This document shows, piece by piece, positions 14,459 through 52,906 of a stretch of 64,000 nucleotides of DNA. Location of the stretch: the NCBI GenBank assembly GCA_963826825.1, contig CAWGYV010000016.1, positions 414,771 to 478,770 on the forward strand, given 5' to 3'. The position numbers were made by a program, and so were the translations under genes. Within the stretch, counting starts at the first letter, position 1; each line of letters opens with the position of its first letter. Below the pieces are notes generated by a model. The model saw only the letters and a list, made by a program, of their open reading frames with translations, had not been told where the DNA came from and ran no database searches. Source of the stretch: an uncultured Acidimicrobiia bacterium (GTDB taxonomy: Bacteria > Actinomycetota > Acidimicrobiia > Spongiisociales > DATADW01).

Positions 14459-14498
14459 GTCCAGAGGGTGGTCATCACCCCCTGAGGAGATGGTCACG

Positions 14499-17328: not shown

Positions 17329-18481
17329 TCAGTCGGTGTAGAAGCGGGCGATCTCCTCACCGATCGGTCCAACTGCCGCCTCGGTGAGGTGGCCCAGGTC
17401 GTCTCTGTAGTCAGCGCAGCTACGCACCTCGGGCGAGGCGCCCTTTTCGACGCCAACCGTGAGTTCGATCGCCTGGTCGATGATCGGATGGTTGACCGAG
17501 GCCCTGACACTCTCCCTGCGGTCCCCCGGACATAGCTGCTCGTCGGGACCGCCGACGATTGGCTGAAGCACGATTGCCGCGCCGGGGTACTTGACCCTGG
17601 CGGTGGCTACCGCCGACGTGATGTCCTCGACCCACTGCGCCACCGGACGCTCGGCACCCGTCACCGTAAGCAACAGCCGGCTCGGGGTCCCGTCCGAGCA
17701 CCCGATACGACCTGATTGCTCCAACCGACGAAACCCGGATCGGCCCATTTCTCGATCGTTGCTCCCGACTCCCAGAGGAGGTCCCACCCGGCGTCGCCTG
17801 CCACCGGCTCGAAGCCACCGCCGGTGAACCACTGCTCGGTCTGACTGAACCCGACCACCCTGGTGCAGGAGAAGGGGCCTGTTGCCGACAAGCCGAGCGC
17901 CCGGGCCAGGAAGCTCGCCATCTGGTCGCGCCTCACCGCCTGTTCCGGGCAGAAACGGATCCCGGACTCGTCGCACCCGGCGGTGATTGCTGCTGCGGCG
18001 ATGGAGTTGATGGCCTCCTCGTGAACGCTCTCCTCGTCGTCCACGAAGATGTCGGCGCTCGAAGCGGGGAATGCAAAGCCCCGCACCAAGAGACTTGCCA
18101 TCTGCGCCCTACTGAGCGCCTCAGACGGGCAGAAGCGCGTTCCGGCCGGGTTGCAGCCGATGGTGATGCCCGCCTGGGCAATGGCGTTGATCGCCTCCTC
18201 GTGAACGCTCTCCTCGTCGTCACCAAAAGCATCGGTCCCGGATATGGGGAGGTCAAGCGCTCGCTGCAGGAAGCTCGCCATCTGCCCCCTGGTCACCGCG
18301 CGGCCGGGGCAATAGAGGTTCGTGCTGCAGCCAACGGTGATGCCTTCGGCGGCGATCGCCTCGATGGCCGCCTCGTGGACATTGCCATCGTCGTCATCAA
18401 AGGTCCCCGCTGCTGTCGCCGGCGCGGCGGGGATCAACCAAACCGTAACCGCCAGGATGGCGGCGCCGGCCAGGCGGATCC

Positions 18482-18497
<16 letters not shown>
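17329..18497 (-). CDS. Secreted protein with 3 SLH repeats plus an SGNH-like C-terminal domain (frame break ~17705)
   Basis: A signal peptide (MRQPVRIRLAGAAILAVTVWLIPAAPATAAG) is followed by three copies of F.DD....H..AI.A.A..GIT.GC......FCP...V.R.QMASFL.RA. The C-terminal domain (VVGFSQTEQW...DDLGHLTEAA) continues in ORF 17329..17976. Confidence 0.8.
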
Positions 18498-20259
<1,762 letters not shown>

Positions 20260-20278
<19 letters not shown>

Positions 20279-20904
20279 TCGAGCGCCCGGACCAGGAATG
20301 AGGCCATCTGTCCCCTGGTCACCGGCTCATTTGGGCAAAAGCTGGTGCCGCCGCATCCCTGGGTGATCCCCGCTTCGGCCAGCGCGTTGATCTCCGCCTG
20401 GAACGTGCTGGTGCCGTCATCGGTGAAACGGTCGGGGCCGGGGGGGAGGTCCAGAGTTCGGGCGAGGAAGGCTGCCATCTGCCCGCGGGTCACCGAACTG
20501 TCGGGGCAGTAGGAGGATCCGCTGCCGCACCCGGTGGTGATCCCCACCGATGCGATCGAGTTGATCGAATCCTCGTGGGTGTTCCCCGAGTCGTCCCCGA
20601 AGTAGTCGAACTCGGCGTCGGGGGTGACGAACGATCGGGCGAGGAACGACGCCATCTGTGCCCTGGTCACCGGCTCCTCCGGGCAGAACAGTGTCCCTGC
20701 GTCGTTGCAACCCTTGGTGATCCCCCATTGGGCGAGGGCGACGATCGAGTCGGCGTGCACCGATCCTGCGATGTCGACGAACGGCTGGGGCTGCTGGGCG
20801 AGGGCCGGTGAGGGCGCCATCGTCATCGAGGTGACTGCGGACAGCGTCAGCCAGAGCACCCAACAACGCGGCCGCCTGGCTAGGCCCCTTCGGGATGTGG
20901 TCAC
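20260..20904 (-). CDS. Secreted protein consisting of 3 SLH repeats
   Basis: Intact, 214 aa, with a signal peptide ending ALAQQ. The three repeats include FVDIAGSVHADSIVALAQWGITKGCNDAGTLFCPEEPVTRAQMASFLARSF. The stop overlaps the beta-helix gene start by 19 nt. Confidence 0.85.
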
Positions 20905-20992
20905 AACTGACCCCCGATCCGCCGGCGCCTACTACCCCGCCGACAAGAGGCGGGAGTCAAACAACCTGAGACGCCGAGGTCAAATGGGACTT

Positions 20993-21021
20993 GAGTACTT
21001 AGTACTAAGTACTAAGTACTC
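20993..21021. promoter_or_regulatory. 29-bp AT-rich perfect palindrome made of four AGTACT hexamers at 7-bp spacing
   Basis: The sequence is gAGTACTtAGTACTaAGTACTaAGTACTc. The 14-bp arms are exact reverse complements around the central A at 21007. It lies 10 nt downstream of the methyltransferase stop and ~90-115 nt upstream of the SLH operon start. Confidence 0.8.
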
Positions 21022-21030
21022 AGACGAATC

Positions 21031-22257
21031 TCACACCGATACCACCTCAGGGTCGAGACCCATCTCTGTGAGCTGATTCGTGATCTCCTCTTGGTAGATC
21101 TGGTTCATCAGTACCACCAGGTCGGGCTTGAGCTCGATGAGACTCTCGGGGGCGAGCACCTCGTGGCCGGTCCCGGGGAGGAACATCCCCTGCTTGTAGG
21201 GGTTGATGTCTACCACTGCCGACACGCTGTCGCCGAGGCCGATTGTGGTGAGGAAGGCGACCGCCTTGGACCCGCCACCCCAGATGGCGACACGCTCGCC
21301 GCGTTCGGCCGAACCCTCTAGCCGTTGGCGCCAGCTCTCGATGTGGCGGTTGGCGCCGGAGGCGAAGGCGAGCACCATCTCGCCGACTTCGTCGGGTGAC
21401 TCCTCGACCGGCAGCGGATCGACTGATCCGCCGATGACCGAGTCGGCCAGCAGGTACTGGTCACCGAACCCGAGTGCGATATCGGTGACGGTGAACCCCG
21501 CTTCCCTGAGGGCTCGCCCCAGCGAGCCGGGTGTGTAGTACGAGCAGTGCTCGTAGTAGATGTCCCAGAAGGCGAACTCCCTCAAGACCCGTCCCGTGTC
21601 GGGGACCTCGGTGAACATCGCTGCTCCGTCGGTTGCCTCCACGGACCGTCGCAGCAGCCTGAAGAAGTCGCCGACCGGGGCGATGTGCTCCATGGTGTGG
21701 CGGGTGATGACCAGGTCGCCGGTCAGCGGGGTGTGCTCCTCACCGTAGAAAGCGCGGATCAGCTCAACCGAGCCATCGCCCGCTTCCCCAACCGGCGGCC
21801 TCCCGAATCCTGGGTCGATCCCAATGCCCCGGCCGATGCCGAGCTCGGCCAGGAGCATCAAGAAGTCCCCCTTGCCGCTCCCCACCTCGAGCACGGTCCG
21901 CCCTTCGAGGCCGTACCTCTCGACGAGATCGCCGGCGAGTCGGCGGGCGAAGTTGGTGAACAGCGGCGAGAAGGCCTGCGACTCCTCGGTGGGCTGTCCG
22001 TAGTCCACCTTGTCGGGCTCGAAGCAGATGTTGGTGATGAACCCGCAACGGGGGCACAGCCCGAGCACAAGATCGCCGATGGGGTAGGCAGACGCCGACG
22101 GTTGGTCGGGCAGCAACACACAGCTTTGTGTCGGGATCTCCCCCGCGGCGAAGAAGGAGAGCAGCCCGGTGGCGCCGCAACTCGGGCAGGTAGCTGAGGC
22201 ACCGAGATCGAGTAGGTCGTCGCCCACCAGAGGGCGCAGGTCGGTCGGGCCGATCAC
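21031..22257 (-). CDS. Class I SAM-dependent methyltransferase with N-terminal Zn-ribbon and C-methyltransferase C-terminal domain (NDP-hexose C-methyltransferase-like)
   Basis: The GTG start overlaps the upstream stop (GTGA). It carries CPSCGATG...CPRCGF, the SAM motif VLEVGSGKGDFL and the C-terminal domain VAIWGGGSKAVAFL. In the ORF track it is fused to the next gene as one 829-aa ORF. Confidence 0.8.
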   Translation of the reverse strand: MIGPTDLRPLVGDDLLDLGASATCPSCGATGLLSFFAAGEIPTQSCVLLPDQPSASAYPIGDLVLGLCPRCGFITNICFEPDKVDYGQPTEESQAFSPLFTNFARRLAGDLVERYGLEGRTVLEVGSGKGDFLMLLAELGIGRGIGIDPGFGRPPVGEAGDGSVELIRAFYGEEHTPLTGDLVITRHTMEHIAPVGDFFRLLRRSVEATDGAAMFTEVPDTGRVLREFAFWDIYYEHCSYYTPGSLGRALREAGFTVTDIALGFGDQYLLADSVIGGSVDPLPVEESPDEVGEMVLAFASGANRHIESWRQRLEGSAERGERVAIWGGGSKAVAFLTTIGLGDSVSAVVDINPYKQGMFLPGTGHEVLAPESLIELKPDLVVLMNQIYQEEITNQLTEMGLDPEVVSV

Positions 22258-23520
22258 AGGATGGTGGGTTGCGGCACAGGGACGATGAAACGCCCGCCCC
22301 TTGCGGCGTACTCCGCTTGCTGGCGCATGATCTCGTCCCTGAAGTTCCAGGCGAGTATCAGCAGATAGTCGGGCGGGTCGTCGAGAAGCCGCTCCGGGGA
22401 AAAGATGGGCAGCCGCACTCCTGGCATATGCAGTCCGTGTTTGTGGTCGTTCCGATCCACAACGTAATTCGAGGTACTCCGCCGCCCCGGTGTAGTTGAG
22501 AAGCGTGGCGCCCTTGGCCGCGGCGCCGTAGGCAGCGATTTTTGCCCCCTCGGAGGTGAGCCTGGAGAGGAGGTCGATCAGGTCCTGGCGGACCTGTTCG
22601 ACCCGATCGGAGAAGGCGGCGTAGTACGCAGCCTCTGTGAGCCCGATCCTTCGCTCCTCCTCGAGGTACTCCTCCACCGACGGCTCGGCTTCGGCCACCG
22701 CCGAGAAGGTCACACGGAGCGACCCACCGTGGATGGGGAAGTGCCTCACCCGGATCAAATCGAGTCCGTGTCTGCCAAAGAGAGCGGCGAGCGCGGTGAC
22801 GGAGAAAATGCAGTGGTGCTCGTGATAGATGGTGTCGAACTCGCAGTTATCCACCATGTCGCGCACGTAGGGGACCTCGATCTCGACCCTCCCCTCGGGG
22901 GCGAGGATCGTCGCGATGCCGGCGACGAACCGGTTCTGGTCGGGGACATGGGCGAGGACGTTGTTGCCCAGGACCACATCCGCCCTCACTCCGTCCGCCA
23001 GCAATCGATGCGCCAACTCGGGCGTGAAGAAGTCCCTGATCGTGGGGATGCCCCTCTGCTCGGCAGCGGCTGCAGGACCGGGCGCCGGGTCGATCCCGAG
23101 GACGGGCACCCCGGCCTTGAGGAACCATTGGAGCAGGTAGCCGTCATTGCTGGCCAGCTCCACCACCAGGTTGTGGTCGCCAAGGCCGAGCTCGTCGACC
23201 AATCCTTCGGCATGGGTCCGGGAGTGCTCCAGCACCTGATCGGAGAAGGAGGAAAAGTAGGGATAGTCCTCGTCGAAAAGCACGGTGGGTGGCACTGTCT
23301 CCTTGATCTGGACGAGCGAGCACCGCGGGCAAAACACCACGGTGAGCGGATAGTGGTGCTCGTCGGCGGCGGGGAGACCCGGTGCCACCAGCTCGTCGGC
23401 CAGCGGGACCATCCCGAGATCCAGCACGGGGACCAGATCGGTCGCCCCGCAGCTGCGGCACCCGGCTATTACCTCATGCACAGGTACATCATGCACGGGC
23501 ACATCATGCACGGGCATCAC
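22254..23520 (-). CDS. Class I SAM-dependent methyltransferase with Zn-ribbon, paralog of the previous gene (frame break ~22465)
   Basis: It carries CRSCGATD...CPRCSLVQ, VVELASNDGYLL and AAYGAAAKGATLLNY. The C-terminus (VVDRNDHKHGLHMPGVRLPIFSPERL...FIVPVPQPTIL) lies in ORF 22254..22460. Confidence 0.8.
23471..23515 (-). repeat. 3 x 15-bp tandem repeat encoding (VHDVP)-type pentapeptides at the methyltransferase 5' end
   Basis: The units acctcatgcacaggt / acatcatgcacgggc / acatcatgcacgggc give the protein N-terminus MMPVHDVPVHDVPVHEV. Confidence 0.9.
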
Positions 23521-24547
23521 CCGTCGAGCTCATGAGACGGAGATCCTGGCCCAGCACGCCGGCGTCCTGGAGCGACCTCACGTGTTTGACGCGGAGGAGC
23601 TTCCCCAAGAAGGCGTCGGTCCCGATACCGTAGTTGACGAAAGCTTCGTGAAGCTGCTCGGCACCACGCCTCACCGTCCACTGCGTGGCGAAGGCGGGTA
23701 GGACTTCCTCGATCTTCGAGCAGTCGACCCGGTAGTCCCTGATGTCGGGCCCCGCGGTGTCGGAGAGGACTATTTCGCTCCCCGGCACCATCTCCTGGAC
23801 TATGTCGGCCACATCGCGGATCTGGTAGTTCTCCTCCGAGCTTCCCACGTTGAGCACCTGGTCGTGGATCCGTTCCCGCGGCGCTTCGACGGCAGCGACA
23901 AATGCCCGGGAGATGTCCTCGATGTGCACCAGCGGTCGCCAGGGACTGCCATCGCTCTTCATCAACACCCGACCCTCGGTCACCGCAAAGCCCACGAGAT
24001 TGTTGACGACCAGGTCGGCCCTGACCCGCGGCGAGTAGCCGTATGCGGTGGCGCTTCGCAGGCAGGCGGGGCTGAACGAGGTCGAGGCCAGCGCCCGGAT
24101 GTCTCCCTCTGCATTGATCTTGGAGAACCCGTATGGAGTCACCGGGTTTATCTCCGACTCCTCGGTCACGAACGCTCCCGGTGACGCGCCGTAGATGCTG
24201 CACGACGATGAGAAGACGAAGCGCTCGACACCCACGGCGGCGGCGATCTCCGCCAAGCGCGCTGCCGCATGGTGGTTGATGGCATAGGTCGTGTCGGCGT
24301 CGAGGTCTCCCACCGGGTCGTTGGAGATCCCGGCGAGATGGCAGATCGCCTCCACACCGGCGATGTCGTCCGGCTCGACGTCGCGCAGGTCCTTGCGGAC
24401 CGCGGGAATGTCGGGCCAGTCGGGGCCGAGAGTGCAGTCGGCGAACATGTAGCTGTCGAAGCCGACGACCTCGTGGCCGGCCTGCTGCAACAGTCGCACC
24501 AGCACCGTTCCGATATAGCCGTTGTGGCCGGTGACCATGACCCGCAT
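23504..24547 (-). CDS. NAD-dependent epimerase/dehydratase family (extended SDR)
   Basis: MRVMVTGHNGYIGTVL is the Rossmann GxxGxxG motif and YGFSKINAE is the YxxxK catalytic motif. The protein is 347 aa from ATG 24547; the ORF-track extension is rejected. Confidence 0.85.
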   Translation of the reverse strand: MRVMVTGHNGYIGTVLVRLLQQAGHEVVGFDSYMFADCTLGPDWPDIPAVRKDLRDVEPDDIAGVEAICHLAGISNDPVGDLDADTTYAINHHAAARLAEIAAAVGVERFVFSSSCSIYGASPGAFVTEESEINPVTPYGFSKINAEGDIRALASTSFSPACLRSATAYGYSPRVRADLVVNNLVGFAVTEGRVLMKSDGSPWRPLVHIEDISRAFVAAVEAPRERIHDQVLNVGSSEENYQIRDVADIVQEMVPGSEIVLSDTAGPDIRDYRVDCSKIEEVLPAFATQWTVRRGAEQLHEAFVNYGIGTDAFLGKLLRVKHVRSLQDAGVLGQDLRLMSSTGDARA

Positions 24548-24552
24548 GGCCT

Positions 24553-25323
24553 TTAGTCCCAGATCTTCCAGGGCGGGTCGCCGCCATCCCAGAGCCGCTC
24601 CAACAGTGCCTTGTCCCTCATGGTGTCCATGCACTGCCAGAAGCCCTCGTGGCAGTAGGCCATCAACTCGCCGTCCGCGGCCAGATTCTCCATCGGCTCC
24701 CGCTCCCAGAGCGTGTCGTCGCCCTCGATGTAGTCGAAAACCCCGGGCTCGAGGACGAAGAATGCTCCGTTGATCCACCCGACGTCGAGCGGCTTCTCCG
24801 AGAAGTCCACCACCCGATTCCCCTCGATATGGAGGCCGCCAAATCGAGCGGGTGGGTGGACCGCGGTCACAGTGGCGAGCCTGCCGTGTGATCGGTGGAA
24901 GGCGAGCAGCCGGGAGAGGTCGATGTCGGACACCCCGTCTCCCCAGGTGAGCATGAATGTCTCATCTCCCAGCCAGGGCGCCAGCCGCTTGATCCGCCCG
25001 CCCGTATCGGTCCACCGGCCGGTCTCGATCAGGTCGACCACCCACTTCTCGGCCGCACCACCGTCGTGGACCCTGACATCGCCTGTGGAGACATCGACGC
25101 GGAGGCTGGAGGTCGTGGTGAGGTAGTCGGTGAAGAACAGCTTTATTTGATCGCCCTTGTAGCCGAGGGCAATGACGAATTGGTTGTACCCGAAATGGTC
25201 GTATTGGCGCATGATGTGCCACAGGATCGGATGGCCGCCGATCTCCACCATCGGCTTGGGCCTGATCTCGGTCTCCTCCGCCAGACGGCTTCCCAGACCG
25301 CCGGCGAGGATCGCCACCTTCAT
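24553..25323 (-). CDS. rfbF: Glucose-1-phosphate cytidylyltransferase
   Basis: Intact, 256 aa. MKVAILAGGLGSRLAEETEIRPKPMVEIGGHPILWHIMRQY...FWQCMDTMRDK is the typical RfbF sequence. Confidence 0.9.
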   Translation of the reverse strand: MKVAILAGGLGSRLAEETEIRPKPMVEIGGHPILWHIMRQYDHFGYNQFVIALGYKGDQIKLFFTDYLTTTSSLRVDVSTGDVRVHDGGAAEKWVVDLIETGRWTDTGGRIKRLAPWLGDETFMLTWGDGVSDIDLSRLLAFHRSHGRLATVTAVHPPARFGGLHIEGNRVVDFSEKPLDVGWINGAFFVLEPGVFDYIEGDDTLWEREPMENLAADGELMAYCHEGFWQCMDTMRDKALLERLWDGGDPPWKIWD

Positions 25324-25401
25324 GACGCAGTCATCGCGATGCGCTCCCCTCCCTCACTCAGCGTGGCGATCGTACCACTCGGGGCGACTCGTCGTTTCTG
25401 T

Positions 25402-26253
25402 ATGGGCCCGCCTACGCTCCCGGCCCTCATGCCCACAAACCAGCGGCCCACGAAGTTTCAGAAGCGCGTCACCGCGCTCAAACGCAAGGCACACCTCGGT
25501 GTCGAGCATCGCTCTGAATTCGACAATATCTACCATTGCTGTGTCCAGCGGACCGCCAGCCAGTGGCTCCGCAACATCTACAACGACGAGGTCTTCTATC
25601 GAAACACCGGACTGCGAGCCATCCCATACAAGGAGATGGGTTTGGCCGGTGCCCACATCGACGGACCATTCCCCAAGCGGACGATCGTCACCCACCTCTA
25701 CATCTCCTACCCAACCTACCTCTCGATCCCTAAGCCACGAGCGCACCGGTTCTTCTTCGTCCAGCGCGATCCGAGGGATGCGGTGGTCTCTTGGTACTTC
25801 GCTGCCCGCTACTCGCACAAGCCGATGGGGGCGATCCCGGAGATGCGCCGCGACCTGTCGTCCATGTCGCAGGAGGAGGGCATCCACTACATGATCGACG
25901 CCATCAGCGCACGCGGCTACTTCGATGCGCTCCGCTCGTGGACGGAAGTCGAGCCATCGGATTCGTTCCGTATCTTCCGCTATGAGGACATCGCCCTCGA
26001 CCTCCGCGGCTTCCTCGGCGATCTGTTCAAATTCCTCAAGATTCCGGCGCAATCTGCCGAGTTGGATTCGTTGGCGGAGCGCAAGAGCTTCCAGCAGGCG
26101 AGCGGCGGCCGCCAACAAGGCGAAGAGGACATACACGCCCATTTGAGGAAGGGAACTCCGGGCGACTGGCGGACCGCGCTCAATGACAGCGCCCTCGACC
26201 ACCTGCGCCGGGTATCGGGTGACCTGGTGGAGGTTCTGGGGTACGAGACATGA
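25402..26253 (+). CDS. Sulfotransferase-domain protein
   Basis: It carries FFFVQRDPRDAVVSWYF and the C-terminal HLRKGTPGDWR motif. Only the C-terminal ~280 aa of ORF 24895..26253 is credible. The start is ATG 25402 or 25429. Confidence 0.75.
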   Translation: MGPPTLPALMPTNQRPTKFQKRVTALKRKAHLGVEHRSEFDNIYHCCVQRTASQWLRNIYNDEVFYRNTGLRAIPYKEMGLAGAHIDGPFPKRTIVTHLYISYPTYLSIPKPRAHRFFFVQRDPRDAVVSWYFAARYSHKPMGAIPEMRRDLSSMSQEEGIHYMIDAISARGYFDALRSWTEVEPSDSFRIFRYEDIALDLRGFLGDLFKFLKIPAQSAELDSLAERKSFQQASGGRQQGEEDIHAHLRKGTPGDWRTALNDSALDHLRRVSGDLVEVLGYET

Positions 26254-26280
26254 CCGTCGGGTCGCCCGTTTCGGAGAGGG

Positions 26281-27198
26281 ATGGGAATGACCCCACTACC
26301 CAAAGTGTCTATCGGCTTACCGGTCTACAACGGCGAGAACCACATCGGTGATGCCATCGAGTCGATCGCATCGCAGTCTTTCGCAGACTTCGAACTGATC
26401 ATCTCCGACAACGCATCCACCGACTCCACCAGCGAGATCTGTCGGGGGTGGGCCGAGCGGGACGGACGGATCCGCTACTTCCGCAAGCCCACGAACATCG
26501 GGGCCGCGCCCAATTACCACCACGTCTTCCGGATGGCACGGGCCGATCTCTTCAAGTGGTCGGCGCACGACGACATGCTCGACCCGGGCTTCCTCGAGTC
26601 TTGCGTCGCCGCCCTCGACGATGATGCCGGCGCGGTGCTCGCATACACGGCGGCACGTCAGGTGGACGGCGATGGGAAGCCGCTCGGTGACATCCCACGC
26701 TTCTCGCAGGTGGTCTCCGCCGATCCCGTGGAGCGGTTCCGCGAAGTGGTCCGCCGGGAGCGGCTCAACCTCCCCATTTTCGGGCTTGTCAGGTCAGCGG
26801 CTCTCCGGGAGACCGCGTTACCCGGCTCCTACCACGCCAGTGCCCGGGTCCAACTCGCAGAACTGGCACTGCGCGGCACGTTCGCCTTCGTGCCGACTGT
26901 TCACTTCATCCATCGCAACCACCCTGCGGGCTCGCTGCGCGCCTATGACTCGGTCCACGCCCTCCGCAGCTGGTACGACACCGGCCGATCGGCTGGGACG
27001 TACATGCCCAGGTGGGAGTACATGAGCGGTCTGATGGGCGCTGCAACCCGCGCACCACTGTCGTGGCGGCAACGGGTCGACTGCTACGGAGAGGCCTTCA
27101 GGTGGGCGTTTGAGAAGCGCCGCAGCCTGGCATTGGATGTGGCCGAGGCGGGACGGCAATTGCTCGGCGGAGCAGTGCCTCGCCTCCGTCGCACCTGA
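26281..27198 (+). CDS. Glycosyltransferase family 2
   Basis: Intact, 305 aa. VSIGLPVYNGENHIGDAIESIASQSFADFELIISDNASTDST includes the D-x-D type region. Confidence 0.88.
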   Translation: MGMTPLPKVSIGLPVYNGENHIGDAIESIASQSFADFELIISDNASTDSTSEICRGWAERDGRIRYFRKPTNIGAAPNYHHVFRMARADLFKWSAHDDMLDPGFLESCVAALDDDAGAVLAYTAARQVDGDGKPLGDIPRFSQVVSADPVERFREVVRRERLNLPIFGLVRSAALRETALPGSYHASARVQLAELALRGTFAFVPTVHFIHRNHPAGSLRAYDSVHALRSWYDTGRSAGTYMPRWEYMSGLMGAATRAPLSWRQRVDCYGEAFRWAFEKRRSLALDVAEAGRQLLGGAVPRLRRT

Positions 27199-27226: not shown

Positions 27227-27259
27227 CTGTACGGACTACCCCTCAGCCGGCGGGCGTTA

Positions 27260-28145
27260 TCAGCCGGATGACCAGGGCTTGTCGGGGGCACCGTCTTCGC
27301 TCCGCCGACGCGTAGCGCCCAGCGCCACCGCGCCAGCCACCACTAGCGCCGCTCCCAGGCTCAGCCAACCACCACCGGCCCCGGGCCCGGTAAAGGGCAG
27401 GGTCTGCGCCACGGTGGTGGCGGAAATCGAGGTGCTGGTTATCTGAATCGAGGTGGTCGGCGTCGTTGGGTCGGTTGTCGAGGTGGTGGTCCGTCGGCGT
27501 GGTCTCCGGTGTCGTAGTCGTGGTCTCCGATGTTGTGGTCGTGGTCTCCGATGTTGTGGTCGTGGCCTCCGATGTTGTAGTCGTGGCCTCCGATGTCGTA
27601 GTCGTGGCCTCCGATGTTGTAGTCGTGGTCTGTTGAGCGGTGCAGGTGGCGGTCACCGAGTAGTCCACAGAGGTGGCAACAATCCCATTGGCGTCGGGAA
27701 CCATCACGTTGTACAGCTCGATGGTTGCGCCAAGCACCAGCGTGGCGTCCTGGAGGACGGTCTCGACAACATTGGGTAGCGACTCGGTCTGGAGAACGTC
27801 GGTCTCGTTGACGCCGGTGGCGATCACCCCGAAGTTGTTGAGATGGACGCTCTGGCCATTGGCGGCCGCCACGCTGAACGTGCACGTCCTCCCAATCAGG
27901 TCCCCATAGCCGTTGGCCGCCAGGTCGAAGGTGGTGAGCAGCCGCCTTACCCCCTCTTGGTCGGTCTGGTCCACCGGACGTGGGACGGAGAAATCCGCCC
28001 CGGTGAAGCTGAAGCTGACCGTCTGAGCCATGGCCGGTACCGCCAAAACGGCAGGCACCGCCACCAGCGCGGCCACGAACACTGCTCCGAGACGCCTTTT
28101 CAGCCCGGACAGGTTGAAAGAACCCCGGCTGCGTGATGCACGCAC
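27260..28145 (-). CDS. LPXTG-type cell-wall-anchored surface protein, copy A (frame break ~27480)
   Basis: The signal peptide is LGAVFVAALVAVPAVLAVPAMAQ. The N-domain reads FSFTGADFSVPRPVDQTDQEGVRR, followed by (TTTTSEx)6. After a frame shift the C-terminus reads ...TLPFTGPGAGGGWLSLGAALVVAGAVALGATRRRSEDGAPDKPWSSG-stop at 27260. Confidence 0.8.
27499..27624 (-). repeat. 6 x 21-bp tandem repeat encoding TTTTSE(A/T) heptads
   Basis: Six units of gtggtctccgatgttgtggtc and close variants are head to tail, in frame within LPXTG-A. Confidence 0.95.
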
Positions 28146-28461: not shown

Positions 28462-29598
28462 TCAGCCGGAGGAGAAGGGCTTGTCGGGAGCGGTGTCCTC
28501 GCTCCGGCGCCTGGCCGCTCCTAGCGCCACTGCGCCCGCAATCAAGAGCGCCGCACCCAGGCTCAGCCAACCACCGCCACCGGGCCCGGTGTTGGGCAAC
28601 GTCGGGGGCACCGTCGTCACGACCGGGATGGTCGTGGGTGTGGTGGTGACGGTCGTCTGGAAGGGGGCGTTGCAAAGCGTCGACGCAGGCGGGTAGGGCA
28701 CCTCGAACACCTCGGTCTGAGGGTTGAGCGTGAGCTGGATGAAGATTGGCCGGTAACTCTCGGGCGGCCACGTGATCGGGTCGGTCGAGTCGTCGTAGCC
28801 CGGCCAGAGGCGGTTGACCGACACGTTCCCCTGGGCATCGGCGTTGACCGTCATCACCTCGATCTCGTTCATGTCACGGTCGTAGATGTGGAGCTGGATC
28901 CCGGTGGCGTTTGCCGGCCAGCCGCTCGACTCGACCACCAGGTGGGGTACGGCGTTGATGCACTCGCCGGTTGCCACCGGGACCGTGGGCGGCGCCGTCG
29001 TGGTCGTAGGCACCGTGGTTGATGTGGTAGTGGTTGACGAGGTGGTGGACGTGGTCGTGGTCGATGAGGTTGTCGATGTGGTCGTGGAAGTTGTCGTTGT
29101 GGTGGTCTGGTCTGCGCAGAACACCAACACCGTGTAGTCCACGGAGGTGCCCACGATGTCATCGTCATCGGGCATCCATGATGTTGTAGAGCTCCATCGT
29201 CTCGCCGAGGACGAGGGTGGGGTCGTCGAGCACGGTTCTCAGGACATTGGGCTCCGATTCCGTCTCGAGGACGTCGGTCTCGCTGCCCCCGGTCACGATC
29301 AGCCCGAGGTTGTTGACGTGGACGCTGTCGCCATTGGCCGCCAACACGATGATCCTGCAGGTCTGTCCGACCAGGTCCTCGAACCCGTTGGCCACCAGGT
29401 CAAAGCTGGCGACAAACCGCTGCACGCCTTCCTGGTCGGTCTGATCGGCGTCACGGGGGATGAAGAAGTCCGACCCCGTGAAGGTGAAGTCGGGAGTGGG
29501 AGCTGAGCCTGAGCCGGCACTGCCAGCACGAGAGGCACCGCCACCAACGCGGCAACCACGACTGCCGCCAAACGTCTTCTCAGCCCCGAAGCGGACAA
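28462..29598 (-). CDS. LPXTG-type cell-wall-anchored surface protein, copy B, with an extra middle domain (frame breaks ~29500 and ~29170)
   Basis: The signal peptide is LAAVVVAALVAVPLVLAVPAQAQ and the N-domain reads FTFTGSDFFIPRDADQTDQEGVQR. A Thr/Ser-rich linker and an extra domain follow. The anchor reads LPNTGPGGGGWLSLGAALLIAGAVALGAARRRSEDTAPDKPFSSG-stop. Confidence 0.85.
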
Positions 29599-29768
29599 GC
29601 CGCCATAACCCTATCGTGCGAACTCCACCCACGTCGCTCTCCCTTCGTCACCCCTTGCTTTCGCCTACCGGGCACGGTTGACGACCCTGGCGTATAAAGC
29701 CAATCTAGACAGACCCAAAAAGAAACGCGTGCACGCCGGTCCTTTTCCGCCAGCCGGCTGAGATCTCC

Positions 29769-31077
29769 TTACCGGAGATCCTTGCGGTGGTCGGTGAAGC
29801 GGCGTGCCTTGAGGTCGAACCGGGGAAGCGTCCCCATCGGAACCGTCGTGGCCAGCGGCCGGACTCCGATCCCGGTGTGGATCTCGCGGGCTACGGCGGC
29901 GGCGAGGGCGTCGGGATCACCCGTGGTGACCTCGATGCGCAGCTCCATCACGTCGAGCTCTTCCTTGCGGTAGACGTCGACAGCGAACTCGCCGATCTCG
30001 GGGAAGCGCCGCACCAGGTTCTCCACTGCGCTGGGGAAGATGTTGACGCCGCGCACGATGAGCACGTCGTCGACCCTCCCGGTGACACCACCCTCGAAGC
30101 GCATGAAGGTCCTGCCGTCCTCGCTGGGTTCGGAGGCGACGACCACATGGTCGCCGGTGCGGTAGCGGATCACCGGGAACCCGGGGCGACCCAGGTTGGT
30201 GATGATCAGCTCGCCGTCGTTCGACTCCTCACCGGTGGCGGGATCGATCACCTCGGCGAGGAACTCCGCCTCGTTGACGAACAGCCCGTTCTGGAGTTGT
30301 GACTCGAAGCCCCAGGCACCGACCTCGGTTGCGCCGGCATGGTCGTAGGCCCGTGCCCCCCACGCCTCTTCGATCCTCGCCCGGGTCGCCGGGATCCCTG
30401 CCCCGGGCTCGCCGGCGTGGATGGCCACTCGCACACCCGAGTTGGCGATGTCGATCCCCTCCTCGGCTGCCACCTCGGCGAGGTGGAGGGCGTAGGTGGG
30501 GGTGCACACCAGCACCGAGATGTCGTTGACCAGGATCGCCTTGAGCCGCTGCAGCGACGACATCCCACCGCCGGGGAAGGCGAGGGCGCCGATGAGACGG
30601 GCACCTTCATAGGCGCTCCAGAAACCGATGAACGGCCCGAACGAGAAGGCGAAGAAGATGCGGTCCATCGAGGTGACACCGGCACTGCGGTACACCTGCG
30701 ACCAGCAGCGGGCCCACCACCGCCAGCTGTCCTCGGTGTCGAGGCAGCGCAGCGGCTCACCCGTGGTACCGGACGTCTGATGGATCCGGGTGTACCGGGT
30801 GCGGGCATAGGTGAGGTTGGTCCCGTATGGCGGATTGGAGATCTGGTCGGTGGCCAGTTCCTGCTTGGTGGTGAACGGGATCTTCTTCAGGTCGTCCATG
30901 GTGCGGACGTCGTCGGAGCTGCGAATGCCGGCACGACCCAGCTTGCCCCGGTAGAAGGCGTTGCCGTCGAGCACCTCGTCCAGCAGAAGCTGAAAGCGGC
31001 GCAAGCTGGACCTCCTGCAAGGCGTTGCGGCCCAGCGTCTCGGCGAACCCGGTCGAAAACTCGAACTCCATCGTCAT
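29769..31077 (-). CDS. Adenylate-forming enzyme of the phenylacetate-CoA ligase / CapK / F390-synthetase-like family (frame break ~31004)
   Basis: It carries IHQTSGTTGEPLR, DHAGATEVG, RYRTGD and VDDVLIVRGVNIFP. An extra N-terminal 24 aa (MTMEFEFSTGFAETLGRNALQEVQ) lies in the adjacent frame, with GGAGGG upstream. Confidence 0.82.
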
Positions 31078-31103
31078 CCCTCCATGTCTCCTTGACCCCG
31101 CCC

Positions 31104-31716
31104 TCAATCGAGCGACGGAGCGGGGTCCACCCCCACTGGAAACTTCTCGTTTATCAGCATGAACGGCAGCCCATCGTGGACCACCCGGTAGGTGCGGGCG
31201 ATGAACTCGCCCAGCCCTCCGAGCCCTTCGGGCGGAACGGCATTGCGCTCCCGCCCGTACCAGAGGATGTCGCGCCTCGTCTCGAGACCGGCATCGTTCA
31301 TGATCCTGCCGAGCCCACCGGGGTGGGTGGCCAGTTCATCCTGGACGCTGCTCGGAAGCCGCTCGGCGACCAGGAGCGAGGCGGCGTGGGCGAACACGAC
31401 ACCACGCAATGTGCCTCGTGAGCAGCACCTCGCGGGCGATCACCCTTGTCCCGGCGGGAGCCTCGAGCCATTCGTGGTCGGCAGGGAGGACCAACTCCTC
31501 CTGCGACAACCGCTCGACCACGACCGGCTCCATGGTGAAGGCCTCGATGAACTTCGTCACCGTGCCGTCGATCACCAGCAGCGACCGGTAGAAGGGGCTC
31601 AACGCCCTGAAATTGACCGGCTGAAGCGTCTCCGGCCGGGCGAACTGGGCGACGAACACCTCGGCGGCGGGATCGAACCCGGCGGTGGTGCCGACAGCGG
31701 AGCTTTGGTGACCCAT
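31104..31716 (-). CDS. Chorismate pyruvate-lyase family protein (DUF98, Rv2949c-like; frame break ~31400)
   Basis: LLVIDGTVTKFIEAFTMEPVVVERL, VFAHAASLLVAERLP and FIARTYRVVHDGLPFMLINEKF align by eye with my memory of the mycobacterial chorismate pyruvate-lyase. Confidence 0.65.
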
Positions 31717-31717
31717 C

Positions 31718-33435
31718 TCAGCTCACCTGAACCTGCTGAAGCTCACCCGACTGGTACATCCGCTTGAAGTGGCTGTGACGGCGCTTGCCGCTCGAGGTCT
31801 TGGTGAGCGTGCCCGTCGGGACCAGCACGACGTCGACATTGATGCCCAGCCTGAGGAAGCTCTGGCGGCGAATCTCGCCGGCGATCTCGTCGGCGGGACG
31901 GGGCATGGGGTCGGTCACCTCGCTGACGACGACGACCCGCTGCGTCCCTTGGCCGCTCTCGTCCATACCAAAGGCGGCGAAACACCCCTTGCGCAGCCCC
32001 TGCACCTCGAGGAGGAAAGGCTCGAAATCGCTCGGGTCGAATTTCTTCCCCCGGACCGTGATCCGCTCCCGGACCCGACCGGCCCAGTAGAGCTCGTCGT
32101 CGCGCATGTAACCCAGGTCGCCTGTACGGAGAAGTTCGCCATGGATCGCCCGCTTGGTGGCCTCGGCGTTCTTCAGGTAGCCGTTCATCCGGGAAGCGGT
32201 GTCGAGGGCGATCTCGCCGACGTGACCCTCGGGGAGTGGCTCGCCGCGGGGCGAGAGGATCTGGATCTTGATCCCCGGATGGGGCTCGACCCGATCCGAC
32301 GATGCTCACCGCCTTCTCGTCGGTGGGGTCGACGATCCGCGCCGTCCGCGCCTCCGGCCAGGGCGTCGCGGTCCACGAACTCAACCCGGTACGGCTCCCC
32401 GGGACGGGTGAAGGTGGCACCGCCGATGTTCTCGGCGCAGCCGAAGTTGGTGCGCAGCCGGTCCCATGGCACTCCGAAGCTCTCGAACCGGCGGTGGAAC
32501 TCGACGAACGTCTCGTGGTGGATGCGCTCGGCGGCGTTCCACCAGCCGCGTACCCCGCTGAGATCGACACCCTCGATATCGCTGTCCTTGACCCTCTGTG
32601 CCGCCAGGGCGTACCCGAAGTTGGGCGACCAGGTGACGGTCGCGCCGGTGCGCTGCACTCCCTGGAGCCATGCCGCCGGCGACTTGACGAAGTCGTGGGG
32701 GCTCATCAACACCAGGGGGATGCCGGTGGCCATGCAGGTGAGGAAGTTGTTGACCAGACCCATGTCGTGATACAGCGGGGTCCAGTTGAAGAAGACGTCC
32801 TGGTCGGTCAGCTCCATGGCGGCCACCATCCCGTCGATGGCGGCGGTGAGCGCATGGTGCTCCCAAACACAGACCTTGGGGAGACCGGTCGTCCCCGAGG
32901 TGAGCTGGTACGCAACGACCTCGGAGGGGTCGGGGAGGTGACGGGGGACGGCGTCCACGTCGGGAGCGCCCAGCGCCTCGTCCTCGGAGAAGAGCCAGCG
33001 CGTCGAGCGTCGGACCCGTTCCAACTGATCGCGGTCGCGGGCCATCGAAGCCGGCGCCACCACCAGTTGCGCCTCGGTGCGGCGCACCGTCGCCGAGAGC
33101 ACCCTGGGCAGGTCGGAGTTGGCACCGAGCAGCGAAGGTGGCGCCACCAGAAGAGGACGGGCGCCCAGGAGCAGCGAGCCGAGCACCAACGTGGCCGCCG
33201 GCTCTGCGCTGCTGAGCACGATGACGACGGCGTCGCCCTGGCCTACACCTAGCTCTGCCATTCGCCCCGCCGACCCGGCGGCGGCAGCGTGGACCTCGGA
33301 GTAGGTGCGCCAGGTGGTCGTGCCGTCGGGTTGGTAGAAGGCGAGGGCGCGCTGCTCGGGAGCGCGCTCCAGACGCTCGTAGAGCCGCGCCGGCACGGTC
33401 TCGGGGAGGATGCTTGTGCGTATCACGGGGCTCAC
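31718..33435 (-). CDS. Fatty-acyl/aryl-AMP ligase (FAAL-like adenylating enzyme; frame breaks ~32345 and ~32283)
   Basis: It carries YQLTSGTTGLPKV and the FAAL-typical WTPLYHDMGLV. Shifted frames give ARIVDPTDEKAVSIVGSGR and PHPGIKIQILSPRGEPLPEGHVGEIAL. The C-terminus carries TGDLGY and TSSGKRRH. Confidence 0.82.
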
Positions 33436-33439
33436 CTCG

Positions 33440-34456
33440 TCAAAGGGTCCGGCCGATGGCCACCGATATCCGGCGGCACTCCTCGACCAGGTTGGAAAGC
33501 TGATCGGGGGTCACCGACTGGTCACCGTCGGACAGAGCCTGCTCCGGGTTCTGGTGCATCTCGATGAGCAGCCCGTCGGCCCCGCTGGCGATGGCGGCAC
33601 GCGCCATGGCCGTCACCAGCGAGCGCCGTCCGGTGGCGTGGCTCGGGTCGACCACCACCGGGAGGTGGCTCAACTCCTTGAGCACCGGGATGGCGTTGAG
33701 GTCGAGAGTGTTGCGGGTCGCCGTCTCGAACGTGCGGATCCCCCTCTCGCAGAGGATCACGTTGGTGTTCCCCTGCGACATGATGTACTCGGCGGAGAGC
33801 AGCAGCTCCTCGATCGTGGACATCATGCCCCGCTTGAGCAGGACCGGCTTGGGCTGACGGCCCGCAGCGAAGAGCAGATGGAAGTTCTGCATGTTGCGGG
33901 TACCGATCTGGAGGATGTCGGCGTACTCGGATACCAGCGGTACCGTCTCGGATGACATCACCTCGGTGATCACCGGCATCCCGGTGAGGTCCCGCGCCTC
34001 GGCGAGGATCTTGAGCCCCTCCTCGGCCATGCCCTGAAAGCTGTATGGCGAGGTTCTGGGCTTGAAGGCGCCGCCGCGGAGGACGGTGGCGCCGGCCTTC
34101 TGGGCGTGGATGGCGGCCTCGATCAGCAGGTCGCGGCTCTCGACCGAGCATGGCCCGGACATCACCACAACCTCTTCTCCGCCGATGACGACGCCGCCGC
34201 CGAGATCGATCTGGGTGGGCTCGGGCCGGTATTCACGGCTGGCCAGCCGGTAGGCGCGCTTGGTTGGGAGCACCCGCTCCACACCGCGCAACCCGGTGAA
34301 CGCCGACGGCGTCGCGTCGTCGAAGGAGCCCAGGATTCCGATGAGGACCTGGCCGCCGTCCTCGGAAACATGCGACTTGAGACCGAGGCTGTGGACCCGG
34401 GCCACGACGTACTCGACGTCCGCACGGGTCGCCGCCATCTTCATCTTGATGATCAT
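33440..34456 (-). CDS. aroF: 3-deoxy-7-phosphoheptulonate (DAHP) synthase, type I-beta with N-terminal regulatory domain
   Basis: The ORF is intact. It carries [38 protein letters not shown] and [11 protein letters not shown]. The start is [17 protein letters not shown] at 34456. Confidence 0.88.
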
Positions 34457-48468: not shown

Positions 48469-48501
48469 GAGAGGCGGCACGCTAGTCCCGGCACCGGTGC
48501 C

Positions 48502-48536
48502 GGCCGACCAATCTGGCCGACCAATCTGGCCGACCA
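48502..48536. repeat. 2.7 x 13-bp tandem repeat GGCCGACCAATCT in the cofG/lipoprotein divergent intergenic region
   Basis: The sequence is ggccgaccaatct ggccgaccaatct ggccgacca. It lies 34 nt upstream of the cofG ATG (minus strand) and 43 nt upstream of the lipoprotein ATG (plus strand). Confidence 0.9.
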
Positions 48537-48578
48537 CCGTGGCACCACGCTCGAGGACGGCGCTTTACCCTCGGCACG

Positions 48579-50490: not shown

Positions 50491-50511
50491 CGCATCACCA
50501 TCCTGTCCCAA

Positions 50512-51893: not shown

Positions 51894-51999
51894 GGTCGAG
51901 ATGTTACGGGTATCGCGAAACTGACCGAATTGTGCTAATAATTGAGGGCTTGACCGCGGCCGTCAGCCGCGGGTTGCCTGGGGGGAATCGTGGAGATCT

Positions 52000-52878: not shown

Positions 52879-52906
52879 ATCTCGCCGCTCTTCACCCAGA
52901 TCCCAG

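Follow-up and report, generated by a model that had tools for sequence, protein, structure and literature searches.

In a 64,000-nucleotide stretch of DNA from an uncultured Acidimicrobiia bacterium (hereafter the window), four genes encoding a DAHP synthase, a stand-alone FAAL, a chorismate pyruvate-lyase homologue, and a PaaK-like ligase form an operon that is real and widely conserved. Judged from its sequence, the operon most likely makes 4-hydroxybenzoate (4-HBA) from chorismate and then activates it. The activated 4-HBA probably decorates a cell-surface sugar polymer, a modification of which we found no report for bacteria in the literature. Taken as a whole, the reading that we moderately favor is a make-and-activate cassette for 4-HBA, the product of which would aroylate a surface glycan.

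Organization and conservation of the operon

The four genes all lie on the minus strand at the positions given by a first-pass annotation of the window, and their intergenic spacings of 4, 1, and 26 nt agree with the tight operon described there (Table 1). In particular, the ATG of the lyase gene is 1 nt past the FAAL stop codon. As the window stands, only the DAHP synthase gene is unbroken; four 1-nt insertions cause two frameshifts in the FAAL gene and one each in the lyase and ligase genes. Removal of these window-private bases yields full-length ORFs, and the translated products are referred to as repaired proteins.

Table 1 Features of the operon and the surrounding glycan island, in window coordinates
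Feature	Position	Strand	Remarks
Sulfotransferase	6711-7493		Far end of the island (6711-11423)
GT4	7512-8651		Far end of the island
ABC-transporter ATPase	9701-11423		Far end of the island; frameshift-split
Two overlapping alpha/beta-hydrolase-fold genes	12739-13593, 13580-14545	minus	Downstream of ACP1
ACP1, free-standing acyl/aryl carrier protein	14502-14750	minus	83 aa; DSM serine motif; PF00550, 31.2 bits
ACP2, free-standing carrier protein	14988-15227	plus	79 aa; DSL motif; PF00550, 24.4 bits
Uncharacterised protein	15224-15865	plus	213 aa; start overlaps ACP2 stop
SGNH/GDSL-fold protein, uncharacterised family	16279-17316	plus	Cys replaces nucleophilic Ser
SLH-domain proteins flanking the beta-helix gene	17661-18497, 20260-20904		PF00395
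CEMIP/right-handed beta-helix protein	18482-20278	minus	PF24606
Sugar-nucleotide/glycan gene block	20929-27198		From Pfam of window ORFs and L001/L002 orthologues
Double C-methyltransferase	21031-23520		
NDP-sugar epimerase/dehydratase	about 23504-24545		
Nucleotidyltransferase	24553-25323		
Sulfotransferase	about 25331-26253		
GT2	26281-27198		
PaaK-like adenylate-forming ligase	29769-31077	minus	435 aa once repaired; inserted base 31004 T
Rv2949c-like chorismate pyruvate-lyase homologue, PF01947 (formerly DUF98)	31104-31716	minus	203 aa once repaired; inserted base 31420 C
FAAL, stand-alone	31718-33435	minus	571 aa once repaired; inserted bases 32355 G and 32285 G
DAHP synthase Iβ with FXD domain	33440-34456	minus	338 aa, intact; first gene of the operon

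Gene counts refer to a survey of 81 genome loci. Lack of co-conservation had been set beforehand as a ground for rejecting the first-pass interpretation; all four genes occur together at 13 loci, in Acidimicrobiia and Chloroflexota. The FAAL gene (21/81 loci, never without the ligase gene) and the DAHP synthase gene (orthologues of 58–68% identity within the module at 22/81) are accessory to a lyase–ligase core. The cassette is no peculiarity of actinobacteria: it is also present in Chloroflexota, Nitrospira, Gemmatimonadota, Acidobacteriota, Methylomirabilota, Rhodothermales, Proteobacteria, and others.

DAHP synthase and the chorismate lyase homologue

Profile searches of the proteins, which had been proposed as a check, returned the expected families. 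The DAHP synthase matches PF00793 (268.9 bits) and NCBIfam NF006421 (478 bits, where the cut-off is 335), in line with its designation as a dedicated type I-beta enzyme, and carries an N-terminal ferredoxin-like (FXD) regulatory domain (PF18152, 44.3 bits).

The repaired lyase matches PF01947 (50.8 bits) and the profile of PDB 2nwi (E = 1.5e-27). Its AlphaFold model (pLDDT 81) retrieves 2nwi (E = 5e-13) and E. coli UbiC (1g1b, E = 1.2e-5) in Foldseek. Residues R95 and E190 are invariant; the comparison with the catalytic residues of UbiC is a motif-based alignment, with an hhalign probability of just 0.8%. The module proteins miss every curated equivalog cut-off for the chorismate lyase, PaaK, and FAAL subfamilies. 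Therefore, the lyase, ligase, and FAAL are assignable to family level only.

The PaaK-like ligase is the constant partner of the lyase

The repaired ligase matches PF14535 (62.9 bits) and the PaaK structure 4r1l (E = 3e-58). Its gene lies beside the lyase gene at 50/81 loci in many phyla, and immediately downstream of it at about 46 genome loci with 59–72% identity. In a reciprocal metagenome scan, the lyase gene is directly upstream of 13 of the 15 ligase homologues with at least 63% identity (one of the remaining two ends at a contig edge) and of none of the 65 homologues with 50–61% identity. A neighbor-joining tree places 45 of 48 lyase-linked ligases in one clade, with 2 intruders. The constant partner of the lyase is the PaaK-like ligase rather than the FAAL.

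The sister clade of these ligases (about 55% identical) is located in operons resembling those of 4-hydroxybenzoyl-CoA reductase. The neighboring genes encode putative alpha (TIGR03194, 924 bits; next best XdhA, 577), beta (TIGR03195, 274 bits), and gamma (TIGR03193, 176 bits) subunits. Because the sister clade has this context, the module ligase is probably a 4-hydroxybenzoate-CoA ligase. Of the earlier label CapK/PaaK-like, the PaaK part stands and the CapK part most likely does not. BagE and AjiA1 are ligases that form an amide or ester directly, or load a carrier, with no CoA thioester; the module ligase could likewise perform carrier loading or direct amide or ester formation instead.

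FAAL and the free-standing carrier proteins

The repaired FAAL matches PF00501 (162.6 bits) and holds WTPLYHDMGLVNN. It has a FAAL-type insertion of ~26 aa relative to luciferase, and its best solved relatives are all FAALs (3kxw, 3pbk, McyG, FadD23, and FadD32), in agreement with its first identification. A fused carrier domain is absent from the repaired protein.

The two ACPs noticed ~15 kb from the module are genuine PP-binding proteins and turn out to be part of the system. They represent a small subtype that is found at 13/21 loci with a FAAL gene versus 1/60 loci without one (Fisher p = 7e-9). ACP1 is 40–51% identical to an ACP located after the ligase gene or before the FAAL gene in L005 and L057. 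ACP2, the opening gene of a divergent operon, has homologues adjoining the module in L041, L045, L005, L057, and L172. This co-occurrence shows the FAAL to be partnered with discrete ACPs.

A glycan island surrounds the module

The glycan-related character of the neighborhood, reported at first pass, is borne out. Among the products encoded there are glycosyltransferases and sulfotransferases, enzymes of sugar-nucleotide metabolism, an ABC exporter, and SLH-domain proteins. The SGNH-fold protein belongs to a family in which some homologues match PF13472. Residues C89, D319, and H322 are invariant among 30 sequences, and the best 15 Foldseek PDB matches of its AlphaFold model (pLDDT 86.8) are GDSL/SGNH esterases, acyl-hydrolases, or unassigned hydrolases. 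The protein is a candidate acyl-transfer enzyme, taking an acyl group off a carrier protein. The preceding 213-aa protein gave no match in a Pfam search; it shows a distant relationship to the C-terminal portion of SGNH-like family members, and its homologues sit between an ACP and an SGNH gene in L041, L171, and L172. The first of the two alpha/beta-hydrolase genes has Abhydrolase Pfam matches, and both have homologues, annotated Hydrolase_4, beside the module in L005, L006, L057, and L032.

In L172, genes for an ACP, the 213-aa protein homologue, the SGNH-fold protein, a sulfotransferase, the beta-helix protein, ligase, lyase, FAAL, and DAHP synthase all fall inside 11 kb, the beta-helix gene lying between the SGNH and ligase genes. 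The arrangement in L041 is similar, with the beta-helix gene beside the module; in both genomes the SGNH gene is contiguous with the four-gene module. Glycan context near the module recurs in several phyla (L003, L005, L006, L088, and L171). For example, Wzm/Wzt (Wzt_C) adjoins the SGNH gene in L171, DegT aminotransferase and dehydratase genes lie directly upstream in L006, and the neighbors in L088 include three Acyl_transf_3 genes, two ACPs, and Wzy_C. Families seen repeatedly in the 296 neighboring ORFs of the relatives include sulfotransferases, GT4, Acyl_transf_3, alpha/beta-hydrolases, and AAC(3)-like proteins. Lyase–ligase neighborhoods are nevertheless heterogeneous, and many loci have no glycan genes inside 5 kb.

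Proposed pathway

The DAHP synthase would supply extra shikimate-pathway flux, and the Rv2949c-like lyase would convert chorismate to 4-HBA and pyruvate, as its family, fold, and conserved Arg and Glu suggest. The PaaK-like ligase would then adenylate 4-HBA to give 4-hydroxybenzoyl-CoA, a step for which its fixed position by the lyase and the reductase-like operons of the sister clade argue. The FAAL would load the discrete ACPs with either 4-HBA (as with FadD22) or a fatty acid; use of CoA by the FAAL should not be assumed. Two activating enzymes for a single acid sit uneasily with this scheme. From genomic context, the Cys-His-Asp SGNH-fold protein and the alpha/beta-hydrolases would move the acyl or aroyl group onto a sugar of the surface glycan. 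The glycan itself would be built by the glycosyltransferases and sugar-nucleotide enzymes of the island, sulfated by the sulfotransferases, and exported by the ABC transporter.

Alternative explanations

The cassette might instead feed a small diffusible phenolic, for example a 4-HBA derivative of the ambigol or bmp type that bears halogen and/or sulfate groups, and the glycan genes would then be mere neighbors. Flavin-dependent halogenase-like genes (WxWxIP; best NCBIfam match CmlS) adjoin the module in L005, L032, L041, L033, L045, L035, L038, and L172, as well as sister-clade ligases, and a phenol is a possible target of the sulfotransferases. The halogenase-like gene by the module in these about eight relatives fits a small halogenated phenolic equally well, and the ambigol pathway is a precedent for handling 4-HBA without chain extension. 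However, the window ORFs scanned contain no halogenase homologue, P450, or other coupling enzyme, and the co-conserved partners are SGNH-fold, Acyl_transf_3, glycosyltransferase, Wzm/Wzt exporter, and sugar aminotransferase/dehydratase genes. We consider a diffusible product unlikely.

A mycobacterial-type phenolic-glycolipid or p-HBAD pathway, in which the FAAL is a FadD22 equivalent and the 4-HBA that it primes is extended to a lipid or polyketide by enzymes encoded elsewhere in the genome, is improbable. The adjacent, translationally coupled FAAL and lyase genes, the carrier proteins, and the nearby glycosyl- and methyltransferases fit such a pathway, but a fused carrier domain is missing from the FAAL, and most loci dispense with the FAAL but not with the ligase. 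Moreover, as first reported, no PKS/NRPS domain is found in any window ORF scanned (the largest is 829 aa), nor is a ketosynthase or PKS among the top families of the relatives' 296 neighboring ORFs.

Supply of 4-hydroxybenzoyl-CoA by the lyase–ligase pair to central or catabolic metabolism (benzoyl-CoA pathway or a quinone precursor), unrelated to the surface, is more doubtful still. It would suit the catabolic sister clade and those lyase–ligase loci without nearby glycan genes, but it would be futile to spend chorismate and an additional DAHP synthase on making 4-HBA that is then broken down, reductase subunits are absent beside lyase-linked ligases, and no prenyltransferase was seen.

The four frameshifts, which leave just one of the operon genes whole, could also mark a decaying pseudogene cluster. 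This is scarcely credible given that private indels differ among seven related assemblies (90–100%), that two assemblies have none, and that the essential ffh gene (two frameshifts), ppc, comM, and one ABC ATPase gene are split in the window too. In L009 (short-read) and L011, each of the four genes is in a single frame, with the FAAL gene intact in both. The GC3 coding signal carries on across every frameshift in the window, and the repaired proteins are 90–100% identical to intact orthologues. Because the indels differ across assemblies and ffh is also broken, the breaks are sequencing or assembly errors, not biology.

Comparison with known systems

The first-pass observation is confirmed, and its overall interpretation, glycan aroylation being our own preferred reading, is partly supported. 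Its analogy with mycobacterial Rv2949c–FadD22, which forms and loads p-hydroxybenzoate for phenolic glycolipids and p-HBADs, holds for a PF01947 lyase adjoining a FAAL-type adenylating enzyme, a possible aryl acid on a carrier, and nearby glycosyl- and methyltransferases. It fails in that the window FAAL has no fused carrier domain, Pks15/1 is lacking, and the lyase is paired with the ligase across many phyla. The analogy is therefore secondary, since the ligase, not the FAAL, is the obligate partner; we know of no mycobacteria in which a PaaK-like ligase has that role.

Priming with 4-HBA without PKS/NRPS is not new, as the ambigol and bmp pathways are precedents. The Fischerella ambigol (ab) cluster reportedly encodes a DAHP synthase isoenzyme, a chorismate lyase, a 4-HBA adenylating enzyme, a carrier, and a halogenase. 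The window shares the dedicated DAHP synthase, lyase, adenylating enzyme, free carrier, and lack of chain extension, and several of its relatives also carry a halogenase-like gene. In contrast, halogenase and P450 are missing from the window, a second ligase, of the CoA type, is present, and the setting is glycan biosynthesis instead of biaryl coupling.

PaaK-type 4-hydroxybenzoate-CoA ligases have been proposed in anaerobic phenol/4-HBA degradation clusters of Desulfatiglans anilini and Thauera (ORF14) (PMC6114531). The module ligase belongs to the same PaaK-like family, but it is tied to 4-HBA synthesis (lyase and DAHP synthase), not dehydroxylation, and falls in a separate clade.

In xanthomonadin and aryl-polyene starter formation (XanB2/XanA2/XanC; ApeH/ApeE), an AMP ligase puts a chorismate-derived hydroxybenzoate on a discrete ACP, as the FAAL may do here, but the chorismatase family is different and type II PKS/FAS enzymes, absent here, follow. 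D-alanylation of teichoic acids by Dlt uses the ligase DltA, the carrier DltC, the MBOAT DltB, and the SGNH-like DltD. The module is alike in logic only: an adenylating enzyme and a small carrier would serve an acyltransferase, SGNH-fold or membrane-bound, that modifies a surface polymer. It differs in the acid (aromatic, as proposed here), in its ligase family (FAAL), and in its type of SGNH protein (Cys nucleophile), and the window showed no MBOAT. The module falls outside the Dlt family, and the resemblance would be purely mechanistic.

Organization of the module and origin of its frameshifts

The module is an operon of four co-directional genes on the minus strand (29769-34456), in the order DAHP synthase, FAAL, lyase (a chorismate pyruvate-lyase homologue resembling Rv2949c) and PaaK-like ligase. 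Their coordinates and strand, first described from the sequence alone in the first-pass annotation, are reproduced by an ORF listing, a GC3 frame plot and a three-frame translation, as are the PLYHDMGL motif of the FAAL and the 1-nt gap between FAAL and lyase. The flanking intergenic gaps are 4 and 26 nt. In a promoter and terminator scan of 29.3-34.9 kb, sites are no commoner than in shuffled sequence, and an Rfam scan of the entire window gives no match. Exact-sequence look-ups with the window's own proteins give no match, probably because start codons or frameshifts differ.

Features of the window. Positions are those of the window; repair is the removal of four inserted bases from the FAAL, lyase and ligase genes.
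Feature	Position (nt)	Strand	Remarks
comM-like gene	4049-6175		split
ABC ATPase gene	9701-11423		split
Gene set after ACP1	12739-14545		alpha/beta-hydrolases; homologues beside the module elsewhere
ACP1	14502-14750	-	free-standing carrier protein
ACP2	14988-15227	+	free-standing carrier protein
Gene set after ACP2	15224-15865, 16279-17316		homologues beside the module elsewhere
SLH-domain proteins with CEMIP-type beta-helix protein	17661-20904	-	SLH-domain proteins on both sides of the beta-helix protein
Double sugar C-methyltransferase	21031-23520	-	829-aa ORF; two complete units (Methyltransf_13/14/23)
Tandem paralogous surface proteins	27243-28145, 28462-29632	-	directly downstream of the operon
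PaaK-like ligase		-	1 frame change (near 31004); 435 aa after repair
Lyase		-	1 frame change (near 31420); 203 aa after repair
FAAL		-	2 frame changes (near 32355, 32285); 571 aa after repair
DAHP synthase	33440-34456	-	intact
Two adjacent radical-SAM genes	45424-48537	-	unrelated to the module
ffh	50200-51900		two frameshifts within ~150 nt
ppc	52900-55642		split

The frameshifts in the module genes are artefacts, not biology. The DAHP synthase is identical in two metagenome contigs, both of which are syntenic with the window and ~94-95% identical to it at the DNA level. In a three-way alignment each assembly has private single-base indels; the four of the window are insertions absent from both other contigs, and all ORFs are restored once these are deleted. 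The break points differ in all of seven related assemblies. The relatives, uncultured Actinomycetota that probably belong to Acidimicrobiia, are represented by nanopore "MFD" MAGs. In addition, every module gene occupies a single frame in two comparison assemblies, L009 (a short-read MAG) and L011. Decay of the module into pseudogenes, the other reading of the interrupted frames, is rejected in view of the private indels, the intact genes of L009 and L011 and the broken copy of the essential ffh. At roughly one indel per kb in the assembly, apparent pseudogenes in this MAG are not trustworthy; in practical terms, many "pseudogenes" of this long-read MAG are assembly artefacts.

The DAHP synthase and the lyase

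Profile searches with the proteins, repaired where necessary, match the families that the first-pass annotation had led us to expect: PF00793 for the DAHP synthase (268.9 bits, cut-off 25.5), PF00501 for the FAAL (162.6 bits), PF01947 for the lyase (50.8 bits, gathering threshold 22) and PF14535 for the ligase (62.9 bits). The DAHP synthase is of type I-beta (NCBIfam NF006421, 478.2 bits, cut-off 335) and carries an N-terminal ferredoxin-like (FXD) regulatory domain of the Thermotoga type at residues 8-71 (PF18152, 44.3 bits, cut-off 27).

In the unrepaired window, the PF01947 score comes from the C-terminal fragment of the lyase only. By profile score, the lyase is classed as a member of the PF01947 family and not of the cyanobacterial chorismate lyase equivalog NF037993, which it misses (26.7 bits, cut-off 175). 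A PDB search with a lyase profile of 24 homologues has the DUF98 structure 2nwi as its sole match (E = 1.5e-27), and Foldseek with the AlphaFold model (pLDDT 81) returns 2nwi (E = 5e-13) and also UTRA domains. For comparison with E. coli chorismate lyase UbiC, the fold was used in place of hhalign, which yields a weak C-terminal match (probability 0.8%) that sets E190 opposite E155 of UbiC. The model adopts the UbiC/UTRA fold, matching UbiC (1g1b) with a Foldseek E-value of 1.2e-5. Residues R95 (AREV) and E190 (LINEKF) are invariant in the 24 homologues and may, judged by motif, correspond to the catalytic Arg76 and Glu155 of UbiC, for which the hhalign support is weak.

Conservation of the module

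The lyase subfamily (~50% identity) spans many phyla and is present in 274 or more species-level genomes. In a set of 81 non-redundant loci, 50 contain the ligase, and it lies directly downstream of the lyase in ~46 genome loci (59-72% identity). The DAHP synthase is found in 22 of the 81, and the FAAL in 21, never without the ligase. The full set of four is present in 13 loci (Acidimicrobiia, Chloroflexota and unclassified MAGs), so the lack of co-conservation that would have counted against the first-pass annotation is not observed. It is the ligase, not the FAAL, that forms the invariant core with the lyase.

The PaaK-like ligase and its sister clade

The repaired ligase matches the PaaK structure 4r1l with E = 3e-58. 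It misses the PaaK equivalog TIGR02155 (220 bits, cut-off 646), and there are no paa genes near it. A reciprocal metagenome scan with a ligase profile yielded 80 loci. Among the 15 homologues at least 63% identical to the window protein, 13 are immediately preceded by the lyase (one exception is at a contig end); of the 65 at 50-61% identity, none is. Neighbour-joining groups 45 of the 48 lyase-linked ligases in a single clade, which also takes in two intruders; members of this clade share 67% identity on average, and 55% with the other ligases.

Beside the sister-clade ligases, the genes that recur encode the three subunits of an enzyme of the xanthine oxidase family. The best model for the alpha subunit is that of 4-hydroxybenzoyl-CoA reductase alpha (TIGR03194, 924 bits; next best family, 577), and the beta and gamma subunits match TIGR03195 (274 bits) and TIGR03193 (176 bits), all three scores being slightly under the curated cut-offs. 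The family is thus coupled genomically to genes that would make 4-hydroxybenzoate (4-HBA) in one clade and to genes that would consume 4-hydroxybenzoyl-CoA in the other, and the simplest reading is that it consists of 4-hydroxybenzoate-CoA ligases. On this genomic evidence, the ligase of the window is probably a PaaK-type 4-hydroxybenzoate-CoA ligase, an assignment that would give a function to a large unannotated PaaK-like clade. Nothing specific favours a CapK-type capsule function.

A large clade of soil-metagenome PaaK-like ligases occurs inside operons of 4-hydroxybenzoyl-CoA-reductase-like alpha, beta and gamma subunits (loci L099-L170, e.g. L120:6001-12104, L142:229-1239 and L163:1693-2199); its members probably act in anaerobic aromatic degradation as PaaK-type 4-hydroxybenzoate-CoA ligases that have gone unrecognised. 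Separately, some loci have a second, divergent PaaK-like gene close to the lyase-ligase pair but on the other strand (L090:6523-7809, L020:6693-7982, L042:13229-14512).

The FAAL and the distant carrier proteins

The closest solved relatives of the FAAL are the bona fide FAALs 3kxw, 3pbk, FadD23 and FadD32, plus the aryl-loading McyG. Compared with firefly luciferase, it has the FAAL-specific insertion of ~26 residues in the N-terminal domain (ATFTRPGEPYRVEFVDRDALAEARTARIV), which is conserved in orthologues and aligns with 3kxw with no gaps over the region. The cut-offs of the NCBIfam models PRK09192, FadD32, FadD21 and FadD28 are not reached, the best score being 291 bits against 600 for NF006624. 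Judged by these profiles, it is a FAAL-like protein belonging to no curated subfamily. PF00501 is its only domain; there is no PP-binding domain, and a fused C-terminal aryl carrier domain of the FadD22 type is absent.

In several relatives a gene for a small ACP lies after that of the ligase or before that of the FAAL. ACP1 and ACP2, ~15 kb from the module in the window, are homologous to these (at most 51% identity, E = 6e-18). Of the 21 loci with a FAAL, 13 have this ACP subtype by HMM, as against 1 of the 60 others (Fisher p = 7e-9), a strong co-occurrence that links FAAL and ACP. In locus L172, an ACP, homologues of the genes at 15224 and 16279, a sulfotransferase, a beta-helix protein, ligase, lyase, FAAL and DAHP synthase are contiguous within 11 kb and adjoin a GT4 and a halogenase-like gene. 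The ligase, small carrier and SGNH-fold gene are contiguous with the module in L172 and L041 and split over two sites in the window.

A Cys-SGNH family beside the carrier proteins

The 16279-17316 protein belongs to an unannotated family, a few members of which match PF13472. Its AlphaFold model (pLDDT 86.8) has the SGNH/GDSL hydrolase fold, with GDSL/SGNH esterases and acyl-hydrolases as top Foldseek matches, and Cys89, Asp319 and His322 are invariant. The family comprises more than 120 unannotated proteins (P0121-P0240) in which an invariant Cys-Asp-His replaces Ser-Asp-His. Its genes are linked to the ACPs; their usual neighbours encode small carrier proteins, sulfotransferases and polysaccharide exporters, and in locus L171 Wzm/Wzt. 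With Cys as its nucleophile, such a protein would be suited to taking over acyl groups from a thioester. This uncharacterised Cys-His-Asp family is brought to notice here.

The surrounding island

The window from ~6.7 to 34.5 kb is an island between housekeeping genes (rpsB and dprA; lepB, rplS, trmD and ffh). It encodes two sulfotransferases, a GT4, a GT2, an ABC ATPase, a nucleotidyltransferase, an NDP-sugar epimerase/dehydratase, a double C-methyltransferase, SLH-domain proteins, beta-helix proteins and two Thr-rich LPXTG proteins. As the first-pass annotation held, the ORFs scanned in the window contain no PKS or NRPS domain; in particular, they include no Pks15/1-type PKS or ketosynthase, and the largest is a methyltransferase. 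A search of the window for homologues of the halogenase and of the AAC(3)-like protein found none. The ORFs scanned in the window also give no match to MBOAT (DltB), in place of which relatives have Acyl_transf_3.

In relatives, the lyase-ligase cassette adjoins a DegT aminotransferase and a dehydratase (L006), Acyl_transf_3 proteins, ACPs and Wzy (L088), polysaccharide deacetylases and a GT4 (L003), or an AAC(3)-like N-acyltransferase (Nitrospira). A Pfam census of 296 neighbouring ORFs is heterogeneous: sulfotransferases, GT4, Acyl_transf_3, alpha/beta-hydrolases and halogenase-like genes recur, with no universal partner besides the four genes. The AAC(3)-like gene (aminoglycoside-3-N-acetyltransferase-like, PF02522) is directly upstream of the pair, ~1 kb upstream of the lyase, in six Nitrospira-type loci (L044, L052, L058, L061, L071 and L073), which suggests amino-sugar N-aroylation from a CoA donor in these lineages. 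Flavin-dependent halogenase-like genes (WxWxIP; best NCBIfam match CmlS) adjoin the module in L005:10203-11933, L032, L041, L033, L045, L035, L038 and L172:6098-7513, and lie beside sister-clade ligases (L104:6418-7671). Their recurrence hints at chlorinated 4-hydroxybenzoyl units in some lineages.

Several other features of the window deserve mention. The tandem surface proteins have a common N-terminal domain, an LPXTG-type anchor and long mucin-like repeats rich in Thr (TTTTSEA). Their conservation does not extend to distant relatives. They may be targets of O-glycosylation by the island. The double C-methyltransferase, represented in relatives by two separate genes (421 and ~413 aa), represents either a genuine fusion or one more indel artefact. 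In L041 and L172 the beta-helix gene is conserved along with the module, and its product could be a glycan-processing or glycan-binding component. One of the two radical-SAM proteins has a CofH/MqnC C-terminal region, and the pair may be an FO synthase for F420 or futalosine-pathway enzymes.

Discussion

We propose that the lyase would convert chorismate to 4-HBA, the ligase would convert 4-HBA to 4-hydroxybenzoyl-CoA, and the FAAL would load 4-HBA or a fatty acid onto ACP1 or ACP2. The SGNH-fold and alpha/beta-hydrolase proteins would then transfer these groups to a sulfated, C-methylated, deoxysugar-containing surface glycan. Synthesis and activation of 4-HBA by the operon are likely; whether the destination is a surface glycan is evenly balanced. 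More speculatively, and with the greater weight against it, there may be a widespread system that joins 4-HBA to surface polysaccharides or S-layer glycans through ester or amide bonds, with a CoA-linked donor from the dedicated lyase-ligase pair and, in some lineages, a FAAL/ACP/Cys-SGNH relay as well. Such a system would extend over Acidimicrobiia, Chloroflexota, Nitrospira, Gemmatimonadota, Acidobacteriota and others.

The enzymes are ordinary; their combination, breadth and likely destination are undescribed in the literature searched, which holds no description of the lyase-ligase cassette or of aroylated bacterial glycans. A literature match to notonesomycin is unrelated to the cassette. 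If correct, the proposal would add aromatic acylation of surface glycans, a cell-envelope chemistry for which we found no bacterial report, in abundant yet poorly cultured soil and marine lineages. Such acylation would alter the hydrophobicity and UV absorbance of the surface, its recognition by phages and antibodies and its resistance to glycosidases, and would be an aromatic counterpart of cell-envelope D-alanylation or O-acetylation.

The cassette differs from each of the known systems that it resembles. Unlike in Rv2949c-FadD22, the FAAL has no fused carrier domain and there is no PKS; in the mycobacterial PGL/p-HBAD locus, it is a Pks15/1-type type I PKS that elongates 4-HBA. The ambigol starter module has a halogenase, which the window lacks. 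Compared with Dlt, the MBOAT is missing, and the ligase/carrier/SGNH logic is alike in mechanism only, so the cassette is not a member of that family. Nevertheless, a common logic unites the cassette with Rv2949c-FadD22, the ambigol starter module, the xanthomonadin and aryl-polyene starters, and Dlt.
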